From Abditibacteriaceae bacterium (GTDB taxonomy: Bacteria > Armatimonadota > Abditibacteriia > Abditibacteriales > Abditibacteriaceae), in contig JANPJS010000260.1 in NCBI GenBank assembly GCA_031425655.1, positions 1 to 10,315 of the forward strand: 10,315 nucleotides of DNA, read 5' to 3'. Below, in pieces: positions 1 through 9,062 of this stretch (its first letter is position 1; every line of letters starts with the position of its first letter). The translations under genes were made by a program, and so were the position numbers. Below the pieces are notes generated by a model that saw nothing but the letters and a program-made list of their open reading frames with translations, searched no databases and was not told where the DNA came from.

Positions 1-2
1 AG

Positions 3-53
3 TTTCCTTCGCGCTTCGAGATTGACTACGTTCGCGTTTACCAAAAGCCGTAA
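3..53 (+). CDS. 3' end of a probable glycoside hydrolase family 16 protein (partial, starts before the window)
   Basis: Frame from 3 reads FPSRFEIDYVRVYQKP* (TAA 51-53). DYVRVYQ is the characteristic final beta-strand of GH16 laminarinase-like domains. Only 16 aa are visible. Confidence 0.75.
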   Translation, partial: FPSRFEIDYVRVYQKP

Positions 54-58
54 CGTGG

Positions 59-200
59 CGCGTTCTACTAAACGGGAAGTCGGGAATGGCGGTAAGACGG
101 GAAGAAAACGTTCTTGAGATTTCGATAAAAACAGGCCGCGATAACCATCAAAATCTTTCCGTCTTACCGCCCTTCCCGACTTCCCGTTGAATAAAACGCG
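59..200. repeat. Long inverted-repeat element, gene-less copy of the repeats that flank the GxxExxY gene
   Basis: Arm 71-105 AACGGGAAGTCGGGAATGGCGGTAAGACGGGAAGA matches the reverse complement of 154-188 at 33/35. The pairing extends outward (59-70 vs 189-200, 9/12). The spacer is 48 nt. Confidence 0.93.
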
Positions 201-235
201 AAGTTGCGCTACATTGCCATAGAAGGAATTTCCTC

Positions 236-1480
236 ATGGCAACTATCAACGACAATTATCTCAAGCTCAAAGCGGGCTACCTTTTTCCCGAAATCGCGCG
301 GCGCGTGCGCGAATTCAGCGCGGCCAACCCGGACGCGGCCTCCAACGTGATTCGCTGCGGCATCGGCGACGTGACCGAACCGCTGCCGCAAGCCGCGATT
401 GACGCGCTCAAAGCCGCAACGGACGAACTTGGCGACCGTGCCACGTTTCGTGGCTACGGCCCCGAACAAGGCTACGATTTCCTGCGCGCCGCCATTGCCG
501 AAAACGAATATCGCTCGCGCGGAATTGACATTTCCGACGACGAAGTTTTCATCTCCGACGGCTCGAAATGCGATACCGCGAATATTTTAGATATTTTCGG
601 CGACGACAACCGCATCGCCATTACTGACCCGGTTTATCCGGTTTATGTGGATACCAATGTCATGGCCGGCCATACGGGAAATGCCGACGAAAGCGGCGCT
701 TACGAAGGCTTGGTTTATCTGCCTTGCACGGCGGAAAACGGCTTCGTCGCCGCGCCGCCCGCTGAGCGCGTGGACATCGTTTATCTGTGCTTTCCCAACA
801 ACCCGACCGGCGCCGTCGCCACGCGCGAACAACTGCAAGCGTGGGTGGATTACGCGCGAAAGCACGACACGATTATCTTCTTCGACGCGGCTTACGGCGA
901 TTATATTTCTGATGCCAATCTGCCGCGCTCGATTTACGAAATCGAAGGCGCCCGCAACTGTGCCATCGAATTTCGCAGCTTCTCGAAAAGCGGCGGCTTT
1001 ACCGGCGTGCGCTGCGCGCTGACGGTTGTGCCACAATCGCTGCAAGGCACCACCAAAAGCGGACAGCGCGTGCCGATTCATCCGCTGTGGCTGCGCCGCT
1101 CAACGACCAAGTTCAACGGCGTGTCGTATCCGATTCAGCGCGCTGCCGAAGCGCTTTATTCGCCCGCAGGCAAAACGCAAGTCGCGGCTTTAATCGAGCA
1201 TTACATGGGCAACGCCAAAATTCTGCGCGAAGCTGCGACGCAAGCCGGTTTAACGGTTTTCGGCGGCGTTCATGCGCCGTATATCTGGATTCAGGCGCCG
1301 GGCGGAATGAGCAGTTGGGACGTGTTCGACAAGATTCTCAACGAAGCCAACGTGGTTGTCACGCCGGGCAGCGGCTTCGGGCGTCAGGGCGAAGGCTATT
1401 TCCGCGTCTCGGCCTTCAATTCCCGCGAAAATGCCGTCGAAGCCGCACGGCGACTGCGCGAACTTGTTTGGTCGCGTTGA
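236..1480 (+). CDS. dapL: LL-diaminopimelate aminotransferase
   Basis: 414 aa. N-terminal [49 protein letters not shown] and the PLP-lysine motif [14 protein letters not shown]-like AGAAGGA at 221-227. Confidence 0.96.
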
Positions 1481-1519
1481 ATTTTGACGGGACGGCGGGA
1501 AGGGCGGAAAGACGGGAAG
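1468..1519 (+). repeat. Left inverted-repeat arm of the GxxExxY element
   Basis: 1482-1519 TTTTGACGGGACGGCGGGAAGGGCGGAAAGACGGGAAG matches the reverse complement of 1951-1988 at 37/38. 1468-1479 TTGGTCGCGTTG matches the reverse complement of 1990-2001 at 12/12. Confidence 0.95.
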
Positions 1520-1526
1520 AAAAGCG

Positions 1527-1931
1527 ATGGATGAGAAATCGCGCTATCAGTTGACGACACACGAAAGCGAAGTGGCGCGTGAAATTGTGAACTGCGCTTA
1601 TCTGGTTCACCGTGAGTTAGGGGCGGGGTTGCTCGAACACGTTTATGAGGTTTGCTTTTGCCACGAACTCACGAAGCGTGGCATTGAATGGCAACGCCAA
1701 GTGCCTTATCCATTGACTTACGATGGCATTGTTTTCGACGAAGCGTTCCGATTGGATGTGCTGGTGGATGATCTGATCGTGTGTGAAGTAAAGGCTGCAA
1801 AAGACATTAACGCGGCACATCAGGCGCAGTTGTTAACCTACCTGCGTTTCACCGGCAAACACGTTGGTTTTATCCTGAATTTTCACGCGCCTTTAATGAA
1901 AAACGGCCTGCGCCGCCTCGTTTTGCCCTGA
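1527..1931 (+). CDS. GxxExxY protein (PD-(D/E)XK nuclease superfamily, PDDEXK_3-like)
   Basis: 134 aa. VHRELGAGLLEHVY contains the GxxExxY signature. RLDVLVDDLIVCEVK supplies the D...ExK motif. QAQLLTYL and GFILNF are typical C-terminal motifs of the family. Confidence 0.95.
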   Translation: MDEKSRYQLTTHESEVAREIVNCAYLVHRELGAGLLEHVYEVCFCHELTKRGIEWQRQVPYPLTYDGIVFDEAFRLDVLVDDLIVCEVKAAKDINAAHQAQLLTYLRFTGKHVGFILNFHAPLMKNGLRRLVLP

Positions 1932-1950
1932 TAACTCAGCCTCGAAATCC

Positions 1951-2001
1951 CTTCCCGTCTTACCGCCCTTCCCGCCGTCCCGTCAAAAACAACGCGACCA
2001 A
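1951..2001 (-). repeat. Right inverted-repeat arm of the GxxExxY element
   Basis: CTTCCCGTCTTACCGCCCTTCCCGCCGTCCCGTCAAAAACAACGCGACCAA is the reverse complement of 1468-1519 apart from one internal mismatch and a short mismatch/indel at 1480-1481. Confidence 0.95.
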
Positions 2002-2003
2002 TT

Positions 2004-2963
2004 ATGCCAATGAAAATCACAGTTCTTGATGCGAAACCGCTGGACGATGGCGACATGAATTGGACGCCGTTGCGCGAGTTGGGCGAAGTCACGCTGCACG
2101 ATAACACGGCGCCGGAGCAAGTATTCGAGCGCGTGCGTGGTGCCGAGGCGATTTTTACCAACAAAGTGAAAATCGGCGCCGAAGCAATGGAAGCCGCGCC
2201 GCAACTGAAGTTCATCGGAGTTTTAGCGACGGGTTTCGATAACGTGGACGCGAACGCAGCGCGCGAACGCGGCATTACTGTGTGCAATGTGCCGGGTTAC
2301 GGCACCAATTTCGTGGCGCAGACGACAATCGCGCTGCTTTTGGAGCTTTGTCACCGTGTCGGCGCGCACGACGCGGCGATTCGCGCCGGGCAGTGGCAGC
2401 GCGCCGGTGCGTTTTCGTTTTGGAACGGGCCGTTAATAGATTTGGATGGCAAAACGCTGGTGATTATCGGGTTGGGCGCGATTGGCTGGCGTGTGGCGCG
2501 CATCGCGGCTACGCTGGGCATGAACGTCATCGCGGCGCAGTTGCCGGGGCGCGAAAGTAACGATGAAGAATTCCCGCGCTTGCCGCTGAATGACGCGCTG
2601 TCGCAGGCCGACGTCGTGAGTTTGCATTGCCCTTTCTCTGCTCAAACGCGCGACCTCATCAACGCCGAGCGGCTGCACTTAATGAAACCGACCGCGTTTT
2701 TGGTGAACACAGCGCGCGGGCTTTTAATAAACGACGAAGATTTGGCGGCGGCACTGCGCGACGGCATTATCGCGGGCTACGCCGCCGACGTTTTGAGCCA
2801 AGAGCCGCCGTCCGAAGATCATCCTCTGCTCAGCGCGCCGAACTGCATTCTCACGCCGCATTTCAGTTGGGCCTCGCCACAATCGCGCCAGAAGTTGCTG
2901 AATATCAGCGTAGAGAATTTGCGAAGATTTTTGGACGGCACGCCGCAAAACGTGGTGGCTTGA
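2004..2963 (+). CDS. D-isomer-specific 2-hydroxyacid dehydrogenase (glycerate dehydrogenase / hydroxypyruvate reductase-like)
   Basis: 319 aa (the true start may be ATG 2010, MKITVLD). ATGFDNVD, NVPGY, Rossmann GLGAIG, SLHCP, VNTARG, DVLSQEP, TPH; the catalytic Arg/Glu/His set is present. Confidence 0.93.
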   Translation: MPMKITVLDAKPLDDGDMNWTPLRELGEVTLHDNTAPEQVFERVRGAEAIFTNKVKIGAEAMEAAPQLKFIGVLATGFDNVDANAARERGITVCNVPGYGTNFVAQTTIALLLELCHRVGAHDAAIRAGQWQRAGAFSFWNGPLIDLDGKTLVIIGLGAIGWRVARIAATLGMNVIAAQLPGRESNDEEFPRLPLNDALSQADVVSLHCPFSAQTRDLINAERLHLMKPTAFLVNTARGLLINDEDLAAALRDGIIAGYAADVLSQEPPSEDHPLLSAPNCILTPHFSWASPQSRQKLLNISVENLRRFLDGTPQNVVA

Positions 2964-2964
2964 G

Positions 2965-3077
2965 CAATTAAACACAAAGACGCAAAGGCACAAAGAAAAA
3001 GCTGAGGAAATTCAAAAGCATTTCACTTTTGAACTCCCTTAAAAATCTTTGTGCCTTTGTGCCTTTGTGTTTAATTG
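2965..3077. repeat. Long inverted repeat built from CACAAAGG octamers, between convergent genes
   Basis: 2965-2996 CAATTAAACACAAAGACGCAAAGGCACAAAGA matches the reverse complement of 3046-3077 at 30/32. The 49-nt spacer contains an inner 8-bp hairpin (3011-3018/3026-3033). Confidence 0.92.
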
Positions 3078-3082
3078 GCTTT

Positions 3083-4537
3083 TTATTTCGTGCTGGCTTG
3101 GCGCGCAGCTTTCGAGGCTTGATACAGGCCGCCGTCGGCTAAGCCGGTGTAAGTGCCGGCGGGGGAAAGGCCCAGCCACGGATCGCTTTGCGGCGTGAGA
3201 AACAACTTGTCGTAAATCATGCGGTTCAATGCGTCGAAGTCGTTGACCTCGTGTGTGATGAACCATTGATGCAGCGGCGCGTGAAGGTTCCATTCGTTGC
3301 GCTGCGTGTCTACAGCGACGCTGCGCTCGAATTTATCTACCAAACGCGCGAACGGGTCGGCGGGTGGTGCCGATGCTATGCTCTGCATCCTCAATAATGG
3401 CGATTGGCTGCGCAGCAGAAGAGAAATCGGGCTTTGGGATGTTTGTTCCTCAAGGTAGTAAGGAGTTGGCGTGATGTCCAGCACCGGGCGCTGTGAACGC
3501 AGCAGCATTTGGCTATTATCATCCAAGCGGGATTTCGCCAGATACGGGTTTATTCCGTCCCAATAAGCGACTTGTTCGCGCGTAAATGCCGTGCTCATGG
3601 TGTAAAGCGCCGTGGCATTGAGAACTGGCGCTTCGCCGACCGATTTCGACATCGCCAGTCTGCCTGCCGTGCTTGCAGGCACCGTTGGCGCGGCCTTCGC
3701 TTCTAACAAAGCTGTGTTCCGCAAGCCTTTTACAATGCTTTCGTGGTAATTAGGTTGTTCTCTCCATTTCGCATTTCCCGCTTTCAAATCTGCAATATAA
3801 GCATCGGCCAGAGCGCCGAGTTCGGCCTCGTGCCACGCCTGCAACTTTTCGCTGCGTGCGTTGCCATTTAATCCTTCGCACGTTTTGAAGAGCGATTCGC
3901 CGCGTTCGAGCCACGATTGAAACGCGCCGGGGCCATAAAGTCCGGGCAAAACATCCAAAGGACGGCCCTCGGCGTCCAGCATATAATGTGCGCTGTTGCC
4001 GGTCAGAGTGCGCTTGAGAATGCGGCCATCGCCCATGTCAATCGTGACGACCGGGACGGGGCGCTCGGAACTCCAGAATAAGATGAATTTGTCGCGCAGC
4101 GTTTGCGAAATCTGCGTGTTGGCGTAAAGCGCGGTGCGGAAAAAGCGGCTGTTGGCGCACGAGTATTCGTCGGTGAGTTTGCCCAGCATTCGCAGCGAAA
4201 GAATCGGCTTATGCTCGGCTTTGGCAGCGGTTTTCGCGGCTTCCAAGTCGGTGAACCAATAAAGGCGCGACGACCACGCATCGTGCTGTCCGGCGACGGC
4301 ATCAAGCTGTTCGCTGAGCAAATGCCAGCGCGCGTCGTTGGAAAAATTCGCGGCGCGCAGCTTGGTGCCGTGCGCCTCGATTTCATTGCGGTGCGTGTTC
4401 CAGAACTTTTCCAGTCCCGCCGGCCCCGATGCGCGCAGCAGCGCCGGATCGTCGTTGCCGGCGCGCAAAACGCGGCCTCCGGCCAGGAATACGCCGCCGG
4501 CTAAAACGCTGGCTACTATCAAAGTCTGCTTTTTCAT
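3083..4537 (-). CDS. Secreted hypothetical protein with a thioredoxin-like domain
   Basis: 484 aa. Signal-peptide-like N-terminus MKKQTLIVASVLAGGVFLAGG..LRA. WFTDLEAAKTAAKAEHKPILSL..SC..LRDKFILFW..HYMLDAEGRPLDVLPGLY fits a thioredoxin-like fold. SD GGGAG at 4546-4550 on the - strand. Confidence 0.8.
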   Translation of the reverse strand: MKKQTLIVASVLAGGVFLAGGRVLRAGNDDPALLRASGPAGLEKFWNTHRNEIEAHGTKLRAANFSNDARWHLLSEQLDAVAGQHDAWSSRLYWFTDLEAAKTAAKAEHKPILSLRMLGKLTDEYSCANSRFFRTALYANTQISQTLRDKFILFWSSERPVPVVTIDMGDGRILKRTLTGNSAHYMLDAEGRPLDVLPGLYGPGAFQSWLERGESLFKTCEGLNGNARSEKLQAWHEAELGALADAYIADLKAGNAKWREQPNYHESIVKGLRNTALLEAKAAPTVPASTAGRLAMSKSVGEAPVLNATALYTMSTAFTREQVAYWDGINPYLAKSRLDDNSQMLLRSQRPVLDITPTPYYLEEQTSQSPISLLLRSQSPLLRMQSIASAPPADPFARLVDKFERSVAVDTQRNEWNLHAPLHQWFITHEVNDFDALNRMIYDKLFLTPQSDPWLGLSPAGTYTGLADGGLYQASKAARQASTK

Positions 4538-4644: not shown

Positions 4645-4727
4645 TGCGCGAGAGAGGATTTGAACCTCCACTCCCTTGCGGGAACTAGCTCCTGAGGCTA
4701 GCGCGTCTGCCGTTTCGCCACTCGCGC
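4645..4727 (-). tRNA. tRNA-Leu (anticodon CAG), CCA not encoded
   Basis: The - strand reads GCGCGAG TG GCGAAACGGCAGACGC G CTAGC CTCAGGA GCTAG TTCCCGCAAGGGAGT GGAGG TTCAAAT CCTCT CTCGCGC A. This gives a 7-bp acceptor stem, CAG anticodon, long variable arm, T-loop and discriminator A. Confidence 0.97.
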
Positions 4728-4805: not shown

Positions 4806-5008
4806 GGGTTCATTCAGTTCTATCTTGGCGAGGCTTGCCCCCCGATTAAAATCGGGGTCTAACGCTACAAAGCCGACCTTCGTCGGCTGAACGAAGTAAG
4901 CAAGGAGAGTCCGCGCCGGGCGCCCTCTGGGCAGGTGACTTCGTAACTACAGGCCCCGATTTTAATCGGGGCCGTATCGCACCGCACCGCACAAGAACTG
5001 AATGACCC
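4806..5008. repeat. REP/REPIN-like nested palindromic element
   Basis: Two 18-nt imperfect palindromes in exact inverted orientation: CCCCGATTAAAATCGGGG (4840-4857) and CCCCGATTTTAATCGGGG (4954-4971). Inner hairpin AGCCGAC-CTTC-GTCGGCT (4871-4888). Outer 12-bp inverted repeat TCATTCAGTTCT (4810-4821) / AGAACTGAATGA (4994-5005). Confidence 0.8.
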
Positions 5009-5066: not shown

Positions 5067-6014
5067 ATGCGGGCACCTATGCTTTTGGGAATTGACATCG
5101 CGCGCCGCGACGTATCGGTGATTTTGGCCAACGCGCAAGGCGGGGCCGAACTGGCGCTGCGCACCGATTTGCCCAAAGAAGGCGGCGCCCCGATCACTTG
5201 GTTAGCCGCGATGAGCGCCGCCCGCGAAGCGATGCACCGCCAGCAAGTCATTCCCGATCAAGTTGGGTGTGTGGCCGTGGCTTTAGATGCGCCGATTGAC
5301 GAAAGCGGGCTGGTCGGCAAGCATTCGCGCGCCGTCGGCTGGGAAGGTTTTGATTTGCCCGACGCGCTGCGCCAACATCTTCATGTTTCACGCGGCGCGG
5401 CGCATAGTCGTTTGCAAAGCGAAGCTTTAGGCGAATGGCATTTTGGCGCGTTGCGCGCTGCGGAGAATAATGGGGGCGATTGGCTGTATTTGCATCTCGG
5501 CTCGTCGGTCGGCGCCGTTGCGTGCGTTAATGGACGGATTTTGCGCGGCGCGAACGGCGCGGCGGGCGAACTCGGCGCGCTGTGCGTTGAGCGCGAAGGC
5601 GCTCTGACTTCCAACGGGCGGCGCGGCGGACTGGAAGCTTATTGCACACACGAGAGCTTTATTTCGCGCGCCGCCGCTTACGGTCTTACCAACTTGACCC
5701 CGGCGCAAATTTGGGATTCTTACGGCAGCAACTTTGCCGCGCGCTCGCTGTGCGACGATTTTACGGCGCGTTTGGCGCAAGGCACCGGCGCGGCTTTAAC
5801 AATTCTCAATCCGGCGCAGCTGGTTTTGGGCGGCAGTTTGGTCACGGCGTTGGGCGAAAAATTGCTGGCACCGCTGCGCGCTCGTCTCAAGGAATTTTGT
5901 CTGCCGTCGCACTGCGCGCACCTGCCGATTGTCGCCGGCAAATTGGGCGATGATGCCGCAGCATTGGGCGCCGTGGCGCTGGCGATGCAGAACGTTCAAA
6001 CGAACACGGATTGA
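5067..6014 (+). CDS. ROK family protein (degenerate sugar-kinase motifs, no HTH)
   Basis: LLGIDI N-terminal strand, GWEGFDLPDAL, ALGEWHFGA, YLHLGSSVGA, GRILRGANGAAGELG, GGLEAYC, LNPAQLVLGG, LGDDAAALGA. The start is ATG 5067 or 5079 rather than GTG 5025. Confidence 0.88.
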   Translation: MRAPMLLGIDIARRDVSVILANAQGGAELALRTDLPKEGGAPITWLAAMSAAREAMHRQQVIPDQVGCVAVALDAPIDESGLVGKHSRAVGWEGFDLPDALRQHLHVSRGAAHSRLQSEALGEWHFGALRAAENNGGDWLYLHLGSSVGAVACVNGRILRGANGAAGELGALCVEREGALTSNGRRGGLEAYCTHESFISRAAAYGLTNLTPAQIWDSYGSNFAARSLCDDFTARLAQGTGAALTILNPAQLVLGGSLVTALGEKLLAPLRARLKEFCLPSHCAHLPIVAGKLGDDAAALGAVALAMQNVQTNTD

Positions 6015-6091
6015 CACGGAAACAGCGTGGATTTTCACAGAAAATCCGTGAAAATCCACGCTGTTTCCGTGTAGCCGAAGGCTCCGTGTTC
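6002..6091. repeat. Long hairpin built from CACGGA units, overlapping the ROK stop codon
   Basis: Perfect 25-bp inverted repeat 6014-6038 / 6048-6072 with a 9-nt loop AGAAAATCC. An outer pair GAACACGGA (6002-6010) / TCCGTGTTC (6083-6091) extends it. Confidence 0.92.
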
Positions 6092-6109: not shown

Positions 6110-7693
6110 ATGACTCAACAAGAACTCTGGCAACGCTACCAACAATATCTCTATCTCGACAAGGCGTTGGAACTGAGCCTCGATATTTCGCGCATGAACT
6201 TTAGCGACGGCTTTTTCGCGTCCTTAGAGCCGAAGCTGCAAAAGGCTTACGCCGCGATGGCCGAACTGGAAAAAGGCGCCATCGCCAACCCCGACGAAAA
6301 GCGCATGGTCGGCCATTATTGGCTGCGTGCGCCGCATCTGGCGCCCGACGATTGGGAGCCGATCATCGAACACACGCTGGAAGATTTAAAAACCTTCACG
6401 GCGCAAGTCCACGACGGCGAAATCACGCCGCAGCGCGGCGGAAAATTCGAGAATCTGCTCATTGTCGGCATCGGCGGCAGCGCATTGGGGCCGCAATTCG
6501 TGGCGCAAGCACTCAGCGACCCGGCCCGCGACCGCATGATGCCGTATTTCTTCGATAACACCGATCCCGACGGCATGGCGCGTGTGTTGGCGCGAATCGG
6601 CCCTAATCTCGATAAAACGCTGACGGTTGTCATCAGCAAAAGCGGCGGCACCAAGGAAACGCGCAACGGAATGCTCGAAGCGCAGGCCGCTTATCACGAA
6701 ATGGGTTTGCACTTCGGGCGCCACGCGGTTGCCATTACCGGCGAGGGCAGCAAACTCGACGCGGATGCCACCAACGAGCGTTGGCTGGCGCGCTTTCCGA
6801 TGTGGGACTGGGTCGGTGGTCGCACCAGTGAAACCAGCGCTGTCGGATTGCTTCCCGCGCTGCTTCAAGGCTTCGATGTGGACGCGCTTTTACGCGGCGC
6901 GGGGCAAATGGACGAGGCCACGCGCGGCAGCGAAACGCAGCGCAACCCCGCCGCGCTTTTGGCCGCGATGTGGTTTCACGCGACGGGCGGGCAGGGCAAA
7001 AAAGACATGGTCATTTTGCCTTATAAAGACCGCTTGGAATTATTCTCGCGCTATTTGCAGCAGCTCATTATGGAATCGTTGGGCAAGGAAAAAGACCTCG
7101 GCGGGCGCGTCGTGCATCAAGGCATCGCGGTTTATGGCAACAAAGGCTCGACCGATCAGCACGCTTATGTGCAGCAGTTGCGCGACGGCGTCAACAACTT
7201 TTTCGTGACTTTCATCGAAGTGCTGACGCCGCGCGAAGGTGCCGAAATCGAAGTCGAGCCGGGCATCACGGCGGGCGATTATTTGTTCGGATTCTTGCAC
7301 GGCACGCGCCGCGCTTTGCACGAAAATGGGCGCGAAAGCCTGACTCTGAGCGTGCAGCGCGTGGACGCCGCAACGGTCGGACGCCTCATCGCGCTTTACG
7401 AGCGCGGCGTCGGCTTTTACGCCAGCCTCATCAATGTCAATGCGTATCATCAGCCCGGCGTCGAGGCCGGAAAAGTGGCCGCGCAGGATGTCGTCGCTTT
7501 GCAAGCGCGCGTGATCGAAGCCCTGCGCGCTCAGCCCGGCTCGGAACTGACCGCCGACGAAGTCGCCGCGCACCTCAAAGCGCCCGGCGACGCCGAAACG
7601 ATTTTCCACATCCTACGCCATCTCGAAGCCTCTGGCCGCGTTCGCCGCCAAAGCGGCAGCGCAAGCCGCACCACATTCGTCGTAAAGTTTTGA
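6110..7693 (+). CDS. pgi: Glucose-6-phosphate isomerase
   Basis: 527 aa. [72 protein letters not shown] upstream. Resembles the cyanobacterial/plastid-like PGI subtype. Confidence 0.97.
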
Positions 7694-7760
7694 ATTATGA
7701 GTTTTAAGTTTTGAGTTGAGGCCGTTAATTCAAAACTTAAAATTCAAAATTCTCAACTTT
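7684..7760. repeat. AT-rich inverted repeat of TTTTGAR heptamers, overlapping the pgi stop codon
   Basis: 7684-7717 AAAGTTTTGAATTATGAGTTTTAAGTTTTGAGTT matches the reverse complement of 7727-7760 at 29/34 (two mismatches are G-U compatible). The loop is 9 nt. Confidence 0.88.
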
Positions 7761-8980: not shown

Positions 8981-9005
8981 GCGCCAGTCAAGCGATTTTG
9001 ATAAT

Positions 9006-9045
9006 AACAAAGCGGCGACTCTCGAAAGAGAGTCGCCGCTTTGTT
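9006..9045. terminator. Bidirectional intrinsic terminator between convergent genes
   Basis: Perfect 18-bp stem AACAAAGCGGCGACTCTC / GAGAGTCGCCGCTTTGTT with a GAAA loop and T-rich tails on both strands. Confidence 0.9.
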
Positions 9046-9062
9046 TTTGGGAAGTTCTAATC

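Follow-up and report, generated by a model that had tools for sequence, protein, structure and literature searches.

Why should a small nuclease-like gene stand alone between two long inverted repeats, in the gap separating two host genes? The question is raised by a 10,315-nucleotide stretch of DNA from an Abditibacteriaceae bacterium (contig JANPJS010000260.1 of assembly GCA_031425655.1; hereafter the window), in which a 134-residue GxxExxY protein is encoded between dapL and a dehydrogenase gene. A first-pass annotation had read the locus as an autonomous element, analogous to the repetitive extragenic palindromes (REPs) amplified by REP-associated tyrosine transposases (RAYTs) and built on a different catalytic fold. 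We lean slightly towards a related reading: a repeat system in two parts, resembling that of RAYTs and REP doublets (REPINs) and run by a PD-(D/E)XK nuclease, in which the cassette would be the member with the gene. That GxxExxY is the cognate factor needed for the repeat arrays is the more probable part of this reading; the cut-and-repair chemistry proposed below is held tentatively, as somewhat doubtful. The features concerned are the following:

1527..1931, forward strand: GxxExxY gene, 134 residues, predicted PD-(D/E)XK fold, putative catalytic residues intact
1468..1519, forward strand: left arm, with a 12-nt terminus (1468-1479), a T-rich linker and four gene-ward units at 1488, 1496, 1505 and 1513
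1951..2001, reverse strand: right arm, with four gene-ward units at 1982, 1974, 1965 and 1957 and a 12-nt terminus (1990-2001)
59..200: gene-less pair of the cassette's arm family, arms 59-105 and 154-200, 48-nt spacer
236..1480, forward strand: dapL, host gene (TIGR03542 above cut-off)
2004..2963, forward strand: 2-hydroxyacid dehydrogenase, host gene (profile match)

The cassette is tightly built. Its arm cores (1482-1519 and 1951-1988) are complementary at 37 of 38 positions and the outer 12-mers (1468-1479 and 1990-2001) at 12 of 12; the full alignment spans 52 columns, in which the linker accounts for two mismatches or gaps and the core for one. The open reading frame (ORF) occupies 405 of the 431 nt (94%) between the cores. 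The enclosure by inverted repeats of about 50 bp and the location between dapL and a dehydrogenase, both claimed in the first-pass annotation, are thus borne out, the latter by profile matches to both neighbours. The tandem units had been given as CGG(G/T/A)A: their number (four per arm) and their 8/9/8 spacing in both arms stand, and the unit itself is better written CGGNAAG, the outermost copy being CGGGACG in both arms. The innermost left unit stops 7 nt upstream of the GxxExxY ATG, where it may double as a ribosome-binding site. The right terminus ends 2 nt upstream of the dehydrogenase ATG, and the left outer 12-mer contains the final dapL codons and stop (1478-1480). The cassette region folds at z = -8.8, a value reached by none of 100 shuffles, and the gene-less pair at 59-200, whose right arm is 85% identical to that of the cassette over 47 nt, at z = -9.5. 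Inverted repeats of the cassette's class number 1533 in the real genome and 0 in a triplet-shuffled one. The cassette is not an assembly artefact, since a contig from run X1 (possibly the source sample) covers 1204-2997 with zero differences and a contig from a separate study (X3) crosses the left junction (1309-1572) with 4 differences; runs X2 and X6, of small share and mainly dapL-like pieces, were left out. The annotated lack of a transposase holds for the eight long window ORFs scanned and not for the genome, which has RAYT-like and IS200-like genes elsewhere. No partner gene or second domain was found for the GxxExxY protein.

Is this layout peculiar to one locus? The genome encodes nine GxxExxY paralogs, and all nine are enclosed by inverted arms that score above the best of 50 shuffles. 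For every paralog the matching partner arm gives the best score (36-100; cross combinations give 14-33). Of 250 ordinary ORFs of similar size, by comparison, 19 pass the arm test. Across 301 pooled loci (two duplicates removed, one viral locus added), 250 (about 83%) have inverted arms, so homologues are generally flanked by such repeats, as the first-pass annotation would have it. Enclosure was found for 62 of 68 loci from this genome, its family and three other phyla (four loci), for 20 of 25 loci of the phylum, for 62 of 76 metagenome loci (four contig-edge loci dropped; not an even sample, because they come from one protein clade), and for 105 of 133 held-out loci (four dropped). The heptamer common to the arms can be written C-[AG]-[CG]-N-[AG]-A-[GTA], and its copies mostly follow at intervals of 8-10 nt; its fixed positions are not in themselves a result, because the pattern was derived from the arms. 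The unit is CACNAAG in the clade nearest the window protein and CGGNAAG here.

Arrays of these units accompany the gene. We counted matches to a triple-heptamer pattern in 101 genomes of another phylum, that of G301 (apparently Chloroflexota), calling a genome array-rich at 20 matches or more. Array-rich genomes made up 20 of the 23 gene-positive and 4 of the 78 gene-negative ones, with medians of 93 and 1 matches. When RAYT was scored as well (NF047646, E <= 1e-15), array-rich genomes amounted to 13/15 with both genes, 7/8 with GxxExxY only, 2/18 with RAYT only and 2/60 with neither. Arrays therefore track the presence of GxxExxY, regardless of RAYT. Within the window's own family, two gene-negative genomes more than 90% complete have 3 and 6 matches.

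These counts bear on the idea that the gene is a mere passenger, captured by hairpin elements that a RAYT or insertion sequence (IS) enzyme moves, its nuclease being unrelated to the arms. RAYT-like genes are present in this genome, and two of the four array-rich gene-negative genomes have RAYT. On the other hand, of the five genomes with the most matches (553-696), four have no RAYT at the cut-off used, and 16 of the 18 RAYT-positive gene-negative genomes are array-poor. Nor would a passenger be expected in some 83% of loci across phyla, each with a matching arm class.

The arm family within the genome shows what such an enzyme may nevertheless have moved. A degenerate arm pattern, without any match in the reversed genome, finds 93 arms, that is 34 inward pairs and 25 singles, several of these at contig ends; only one of the 34 pairs, the window cassette, has a gene inside. 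Analysis covered 32 pairs; the two left out were a pair at a contig edge and another whose spacer is long. Sixteen, including the cassette, are of type A, and its 15 gene-less members, mostly visibly related, have spacers of 47-72 nt. Type A arms resemble each other more within than between pairs (30.6 against 29.2 of 33 positions; 0 of 20000 shuffles). The 16 type B pairs have no such excess and are located inside a separate element bounded by a 12-nt terminal inverted repeat (TIR) with 155 near-matches across the genome. This TIR flanks 9 of the 34 pairs on both sides, and a further 8 have it on a single side or run into a contig edge; two of the nine retain a 7-bp target duplication. By contrast, target duplications are not in excess at the cassette and the other pairs without the TIR, 17 in all (mean 3.2, against 3.7 in shuffles). 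Taking the TIR and the genome counts together, we consider the passenger explanation improbable for the system as a whole. As a separate observation, the element with the 12-nt TIR and apparent 7-bp target duplications belongs to a family of ISs or MITEs (miniature inverted-repeat transposable elements) that is abundant genome-wide and wraps several unrelated hairpin families (for instance C1:3169-3400 and C92:43579-43790 in G000); many of its copies lie at contig ends, and a second TIR-bounded element carries GAG-type arms. We also tried the idea that the outer 12-nt extension arises at each site as an inverted copy of the host DNA there. It was rejected as a rule, because within-pair matching in the 16 type A pairs extends only about 5 nt beyond the core and because a terminus similar to that of the cassette also ends neighbouring copies in the window and in the congener G001.

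Where do the gene-less pairs lie, and at which level would a protein meet them? Genome-wide, heptamer-type pairs point inward in 265 cases and outward in 4. Their arms consist of purine-rich direct units that pair solely with the opposite arm in folds, and triple-unit matches number 428 in this genome and up to 696 elsewhere. Within 70 nt behind a stop codon lie 208 of 255 heptamer-type pairs (median 5 nt), compared with 447 of 787 other inverted repeats; 12 of the 255 lie inside long ORFs. This placement suits our principal rival explanation, an RNA-level regulon, in which the protein binds or cleaves transcript hairpins behind stops and tunes mRNA stability or translation, its own included, while the hairpins spread by some other, general process. 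The innermost left unit, Shine-Dalgarno-like, would be fully base-paired if both arms were transcribed, and long-term synteny with low dN/dS (below) suggests a benefit to the host. REPs close behind stop codons in E. coli reportedly affect translation, a point for which our literature search gave no confirmation. A role of REPIN-RAYT systems in mRNA stability has growing support according to Bertels and Rainey (bioRxiv 10.1101/2021.07.10.451892). The identical layout around genes of other families, described below, also fits. On the other side, the transcribed strand is not enriched in G-U pairs (125 against 113, p = 0.48), the best structural neighbours of the protein are mostly DNA nucleases, and a regulon leaves the arm-to-arm duplication and the gene-restricted arrays unexplained. 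We regard a regulon as unlikely to be the whole explanation; it is compatible with the nuclease-run repeat system, and both can be true together.

Are there signs that the protein reads its arms? The same arm class is shared by 3% of protein pairs below 35% identity and by 71% of pairs above 60%, so arm class follows protein similarity, an outcome in favour of the first-pass annotation, which had suggested this test. In quick trees with many open forks, the window protein belongs to a supported clade whose rows are AAG-type (55) or unlabelled (24), with 0 of GAG type. At residue 17, in the first helix, alanine stands in 63 of 75 AAG-type and 0 of 29 GAG-type loci, a split matched in 2 of 150 shuffles of the labels among cluster representatives. 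A prediction fixed beforehand for held-out loci gave Ala17 in 6 of 26 AAG-type and 0 of 19 GAG-type loci (p = 0.03). An influence of residue 17 on the choice of arm unit is a lead suggested by sequence, not a result.

How mobile is the cassette? Of the 80 family pairs with 62% identity or more, 72 had both flanks testable; both flanks were common to 25 pairs, one flank to 4 and none to 43. Purifying selection is indicated by dN/dS of 0.02-0.12 in those 14 of the 22 closest pairs for which dS was computable. The single clear case of recent arm-to-arm duplication is that of loci L071 and L074 of one genome, whose proteins are 94% identical (dS 0.23): the DNA common to them begins and ends at the outer arm ends, the flanks are unrelated, and no target duplication is visible. 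G000 C215 and L030 have similar limits, and in two other close pairs the alignment is confined to the gene or its vicinity. The gene is rare on plasmids (7 of 72,556 records, five of those longer than 400 kb) and was found in 0 of 50,697 phage records; one viral contig was found apart.

At the dapL junction itself, the gene is not a stable neighbour. In 30 relatives dapL was found 15 times, with the dehydrogenase directly behind in seven, and a GxxExxY match is lacking at all 15 loci, the seven that keep the junction among them; stable synteny with dapL, which the first-pass annotation had named as a finding that would speak against it, is thus not the case. The dapL product ends in W-S-R-stop here and W-stop in relatives; the left arm terminus has therefore replaced the ancestral stop. 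The junction spacer is 36 nt in G002 and holds a different hairpin family in G003; in G001 another hairpin is nested in a relic of the cassette's right arm end, a finding compatible with loss there as well as with gain here. The cassette arm pattern has 73 matches in this genome; the three congeners, 79-93% complete, have 7, 2 and 0, and 23 further genomes of the family have none. The window protein was not found in the three congeners at E <= 1e-30, and among 300 genomes of the phylum the best other match reaches 50% identity. At five gene-less type A sites, the arm occurs in 0 of 15 congener stretches; four of the sites have rearranged flanks in most congeners, and only at C66 are both flanks syntenic in all three. 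Two further observations concern this place: a gene-less DUF559-type arm lies at the G001 junction, and in most relatives (L002-L016) the site behind the dapL stop holds a different hairpin family, as in a hotspot of repeat turnover.

The gene-less relic in G001 also touches on homing, in which the nuclease would cut gene-less pairs and repair from the gene-bearing copy, through arm homology, would install the gene. DUF559, found here in the same layout, includes a group I intron homing endonuclease according to PMC3424549; the cassette gene, judged by its sequence, lies in neither intron nor intein. Since only 1 of 34 pairs contains a gene and the spread of gene-less pairs would be left unexplained, we consider homing very improbable.

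What kind of protein is it? Both curated profiles identify the window protein as a member of the GxxExxY/PDDEXK_3 family, at 132 bits for TIGR04256 (cut-off 35) and 130 bits for PF13366 (cut-off 22). The motif residues G34, E37 and Y40 are present, and the putative catalytic residues E37, D77, E87 and K89, together with Q101xxxY105, are intact. D77 is found in 301 of 301 loci, E87 in 298 and K89 in 297 of 300, equally with or without detected arms. The structure model (pLDDT 94) has as neighbours BpuSI (Z 7.5, root-mean-square deviation 2.4 over 90), Cas4 (Z 7.4) and BglII (Z 7.0), none reaching Z 8. Foldseek returns Hjc (best, E = 1.1e-3, TM 0.44), Cas4 and lambda exonuclease, with zero matches at E <= 0.001, and no solved structure related by sequence was found. 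By its model the protein is thus a PD-(D/E)XK fold member, through individually weak matches, and a predicted nuclease. The best database match is 74% identical, and PF13366 comprises 10,655 clusters at 50% identity (E <= 1e-10). Two-domain forms of 240-295 residues recur among the top homologue matches, and these natural forms hint that the protein may be a dimer. A single-protein scan of named genomes gave 4 loci only. Some variants deserve mention: a tandem double domain (L198:1459-2349), a fusion to a cytidylyltransferase (L199:727-1854), an N-terminal fusion to a RecQ helicase (L335:2702-5335, with candidate 883-residue frames in two more genomes), and a 261-residue form whose C-terminal half has no assignment (L334; G000 C106:16655-17627), surrounded by arms of a distinct family that has 22 short gene-less pairs.

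The Hjc match raises the possibility of a structure-specific caretaker, a cutter of cruciforms or hairpins that lets the host tolerate long palindromes, which would be born by template switching and build up where the protein is present. Hjc is the top Foldseek row, the greater arm likeness within type A pairs is what arm-to-arm copying would give, and one homologue is fused to RecQ. The match is weak, however, and tied with many others (Z 6.2 and rank 13 in a second structural comparison, where the best is Z 7.5); structure alone does not explain the 265:4 polarity, the conservation of a heptamer across phyla, or the separate arms of each of the nine paralogs. We give this explanation little credence.

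Returning to the nuclease-run repeat system, we propose the following mechanism. The GxxExxY protein, perhaps working as a dimer, would recognise the polar tandem 7-base units of both its arms; we infer sequence-specific binding because arm class tracks the protein, polarity is strict and residue and base covary weakly. It would cut at the outer foot of the arm pair in hairpin or cruciform form, and host repair would occasionally insert the arm-to-arm unit into a new AT-rich intergenic site. Insertion is assigned to host repair because, to our knowledge, a hydrolytic PD-(D/E)XK active site does not join strands. The protein's targets would be gene-less pairs, reached in trans, and on rare occasions the cassette that encodes it. 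Such events would be rare; for the most part the gene would behave like RAYT, as a domesticated resident, and would now and then be relocated or transferred.

A number of observations weigh against this reading. Binding, cutting and mobilisation are all deduced from sequence. The arm test fails at 51 of 301 loci that retain the catalytic residues. The same layout surrounds genes of other families, each in its own inverted arms: three four-helix-bundle (TIGR02436) genes, which have no known nuclease fold (L329, L330 and L331; G000 C26, C74 and C92), one DUF559 gene (L332, C244) and two Y1-type genes (L327 and L328; C37 and C70). The 101-genome counts (20/23 against 4/78) are a correlation in which related genomes are not independent and completeness is not stated; four array-rich genomes are gene-negative (G341, G353 and G376 without PF13366, G390 with a partial match), and in the window's family the gene-negative G032, 80% complete, has 155 matches. 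Linkage and co-inheritance of arm and gene could alone make arm class follow the tree. The residue-17 signal is weaker among held-out AAG-type loci, 13 of 26 of which have Ser17, and independent pairs on supported branches number two to four, none opposite, in an underpowered comparison (p = 0.5). Arm-like relics lie at the dapL junction of G001 and perhaps G002, and run X1, of which contigs only were searched, gave no joint that skips the cassette. With dS mostly saturated, the 25 syntenic pairs among 72 show that many copies are old residents. Finally, about half of the arm family probably spread as cargo of the IS-type MITE, so not every copy can be credited to GxxExxY. The notion of an autonomous element accordingly keeps the arm-to-arm duplication of one cassette and loses ground to long-term synteny under purifying selection and to MITE spread. 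The analogy with RAYT/REP on another fold is upheld by the layout, the gene-less population and the link between gene and arrays, and is limited by the MITE-borne half of the pairs and by the four-helix-bundle genes.

Other elements were seen in passing. In the window, a gene-less inverted CRCAAAG pair (2965-3077) lies behind two convergent stops and has its nearest arms around paralog C143; a gene-less hairpin (6014-6072) matches the arms of GxxExxY paralog C215 (score 49); and a gene-less TTTTGAG-type pair (7684-7760) matches those around the C92 four-helix-bundle gene (score 44). Two more intergenic palindromic elements, of other families, lie at 4840-4971 and 9003-9048, the former with internal hairpins that we take, by resemblance, to be REP-like. 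The reverse strand encodes a 484-residue ORF without Pfam match (3083-4537) and a tRNA (4645-4727; RF00005), the only known RNA family that Rfam finds in the window; promoter and terminator scans of 1-3200 stayed at chance level. Elsewhere, a 127-residue ORF without assignment (L333, C184) is enclosed by its own inverted arms.

How does the system compare with those already described? REPINs (Bertels and Rainey 2011, PMC3116915; bioRxiv 10.1101/2021.07.10.451892) are extragenic inverted doublets, some 100-120 bp long and with weaker conservation in the spacer, whose populations go with a nuclease gene of their own; a genome may hold several such cognate pairs, and the gene often sits at a fixed locus under purifying selection. 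The present system is alike in these respects, as it is in repeats that are plentiful with the cognate gene and scarce without it. On plasmids and phages, where RAYT genes are rare or not found, the GxxExxY gene is rare rather than absent, with a few plasmid records, no match in the phage records searched and one viral contig. It differs in the enzyme, HUH/Y1 for RAYT and PD-(D/E)XK here, TIGR04256 and PF13366 being the sole profile matches; in the arm, which is a short internal palindrome in REPs and a run of direct 7-base units here; in a single arm pair that tightly encloses the gene; and in mobility, RAYTs being immobile and vertically inherited, whereas 43 of 72 pairs here lack a common flank, one cassette is exactly duplicated and no close homologue of the window copy was found in the congeners. 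The system works like REPIN/RAYT but falls outside it on enzyme, arm structure and immobility. IS elements and MITEs of the DDE kind likewise place a gene between inverted ends and have shorter gene-less derivatives, but here we find no DDE enzyme, no common terminal TIR, and no target duplication for the cassette or type A pairs. TnsA and XisH act with a partner recombinase, whereas the GxxExxY gene stands alone. TnsA, XisH, a DUF559-type homing endonuclease (PMC3424549) and, by fold, Hjc and Cas4 use the same catalytic fold to cut element ends, junctions or homing sites; the fold matches found here are weak (Z <= 7.5), and the DUF559-type enzyme acts from an intron, which the cassette gene does not. 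Abundant intergenic runs of 7-base units are also known from Beggiatoaceae and cyanobacteria, but the unit is different and the repeats are direct and mostly upstream of start codons (PMC4679880); the terms 'nuclease' and 'four-helix' are absent from its main text. A search on cyanobacterial heptamer repeats and on REPs behind stops gave nothing relevant. For PF13366, PMC3424549 gives the function as 'unknown' and reports multiple transfers, and in 10.1101/2021.01.26.428298 GxxExxY receives a passing mention beside a reverse transcriptase. We found no description of the link between GxxExxY genes and arms in the literature searched, with subscription journals mostly outside its coverage and supplements excluded.

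The association of gene and arms is thus real and widespread, and it is apparently undescribed. Its arm family for each paralog with a control, the RAYT-controlled association, the boundary of an arm-to-arm duplication, the MITE-cargo caveat and the residue-17 lead are the points tested here. In its broadest form, which we entertain as a serious possibility somewhat short of an even chance, GxxExxY genes would be a widespread, undescribed class of self-propagating DNA without transposase or recombinase. The 7-base code of the arms would be read by a restriction-type nuclease of about 130 residues, with one residue in the first helix contributing to the reading, and this nuclease would drive the copying of hundreds of gene-less hairpins, as well as of the cassette itself, to sites just behind stop codons. 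Cassettes with RAYT, DUF559 or four-helix-bundle genes would represent parallel instances of one general design, a gene placed inside the arms that its product binds. If so, an abundant class of intergenic hairpins would be explained, and a catalytic fold unrelated to that of RAYT would prove able to drive REPIN-like populations, a point relevant to the origin and persistence of such repeats. A tiny nuclease with a naturally diversified 7-base specificity could also serve as a tool. For the very large PF13366 family, which has had no function, the arms provide a candidate substrate for every paralog.

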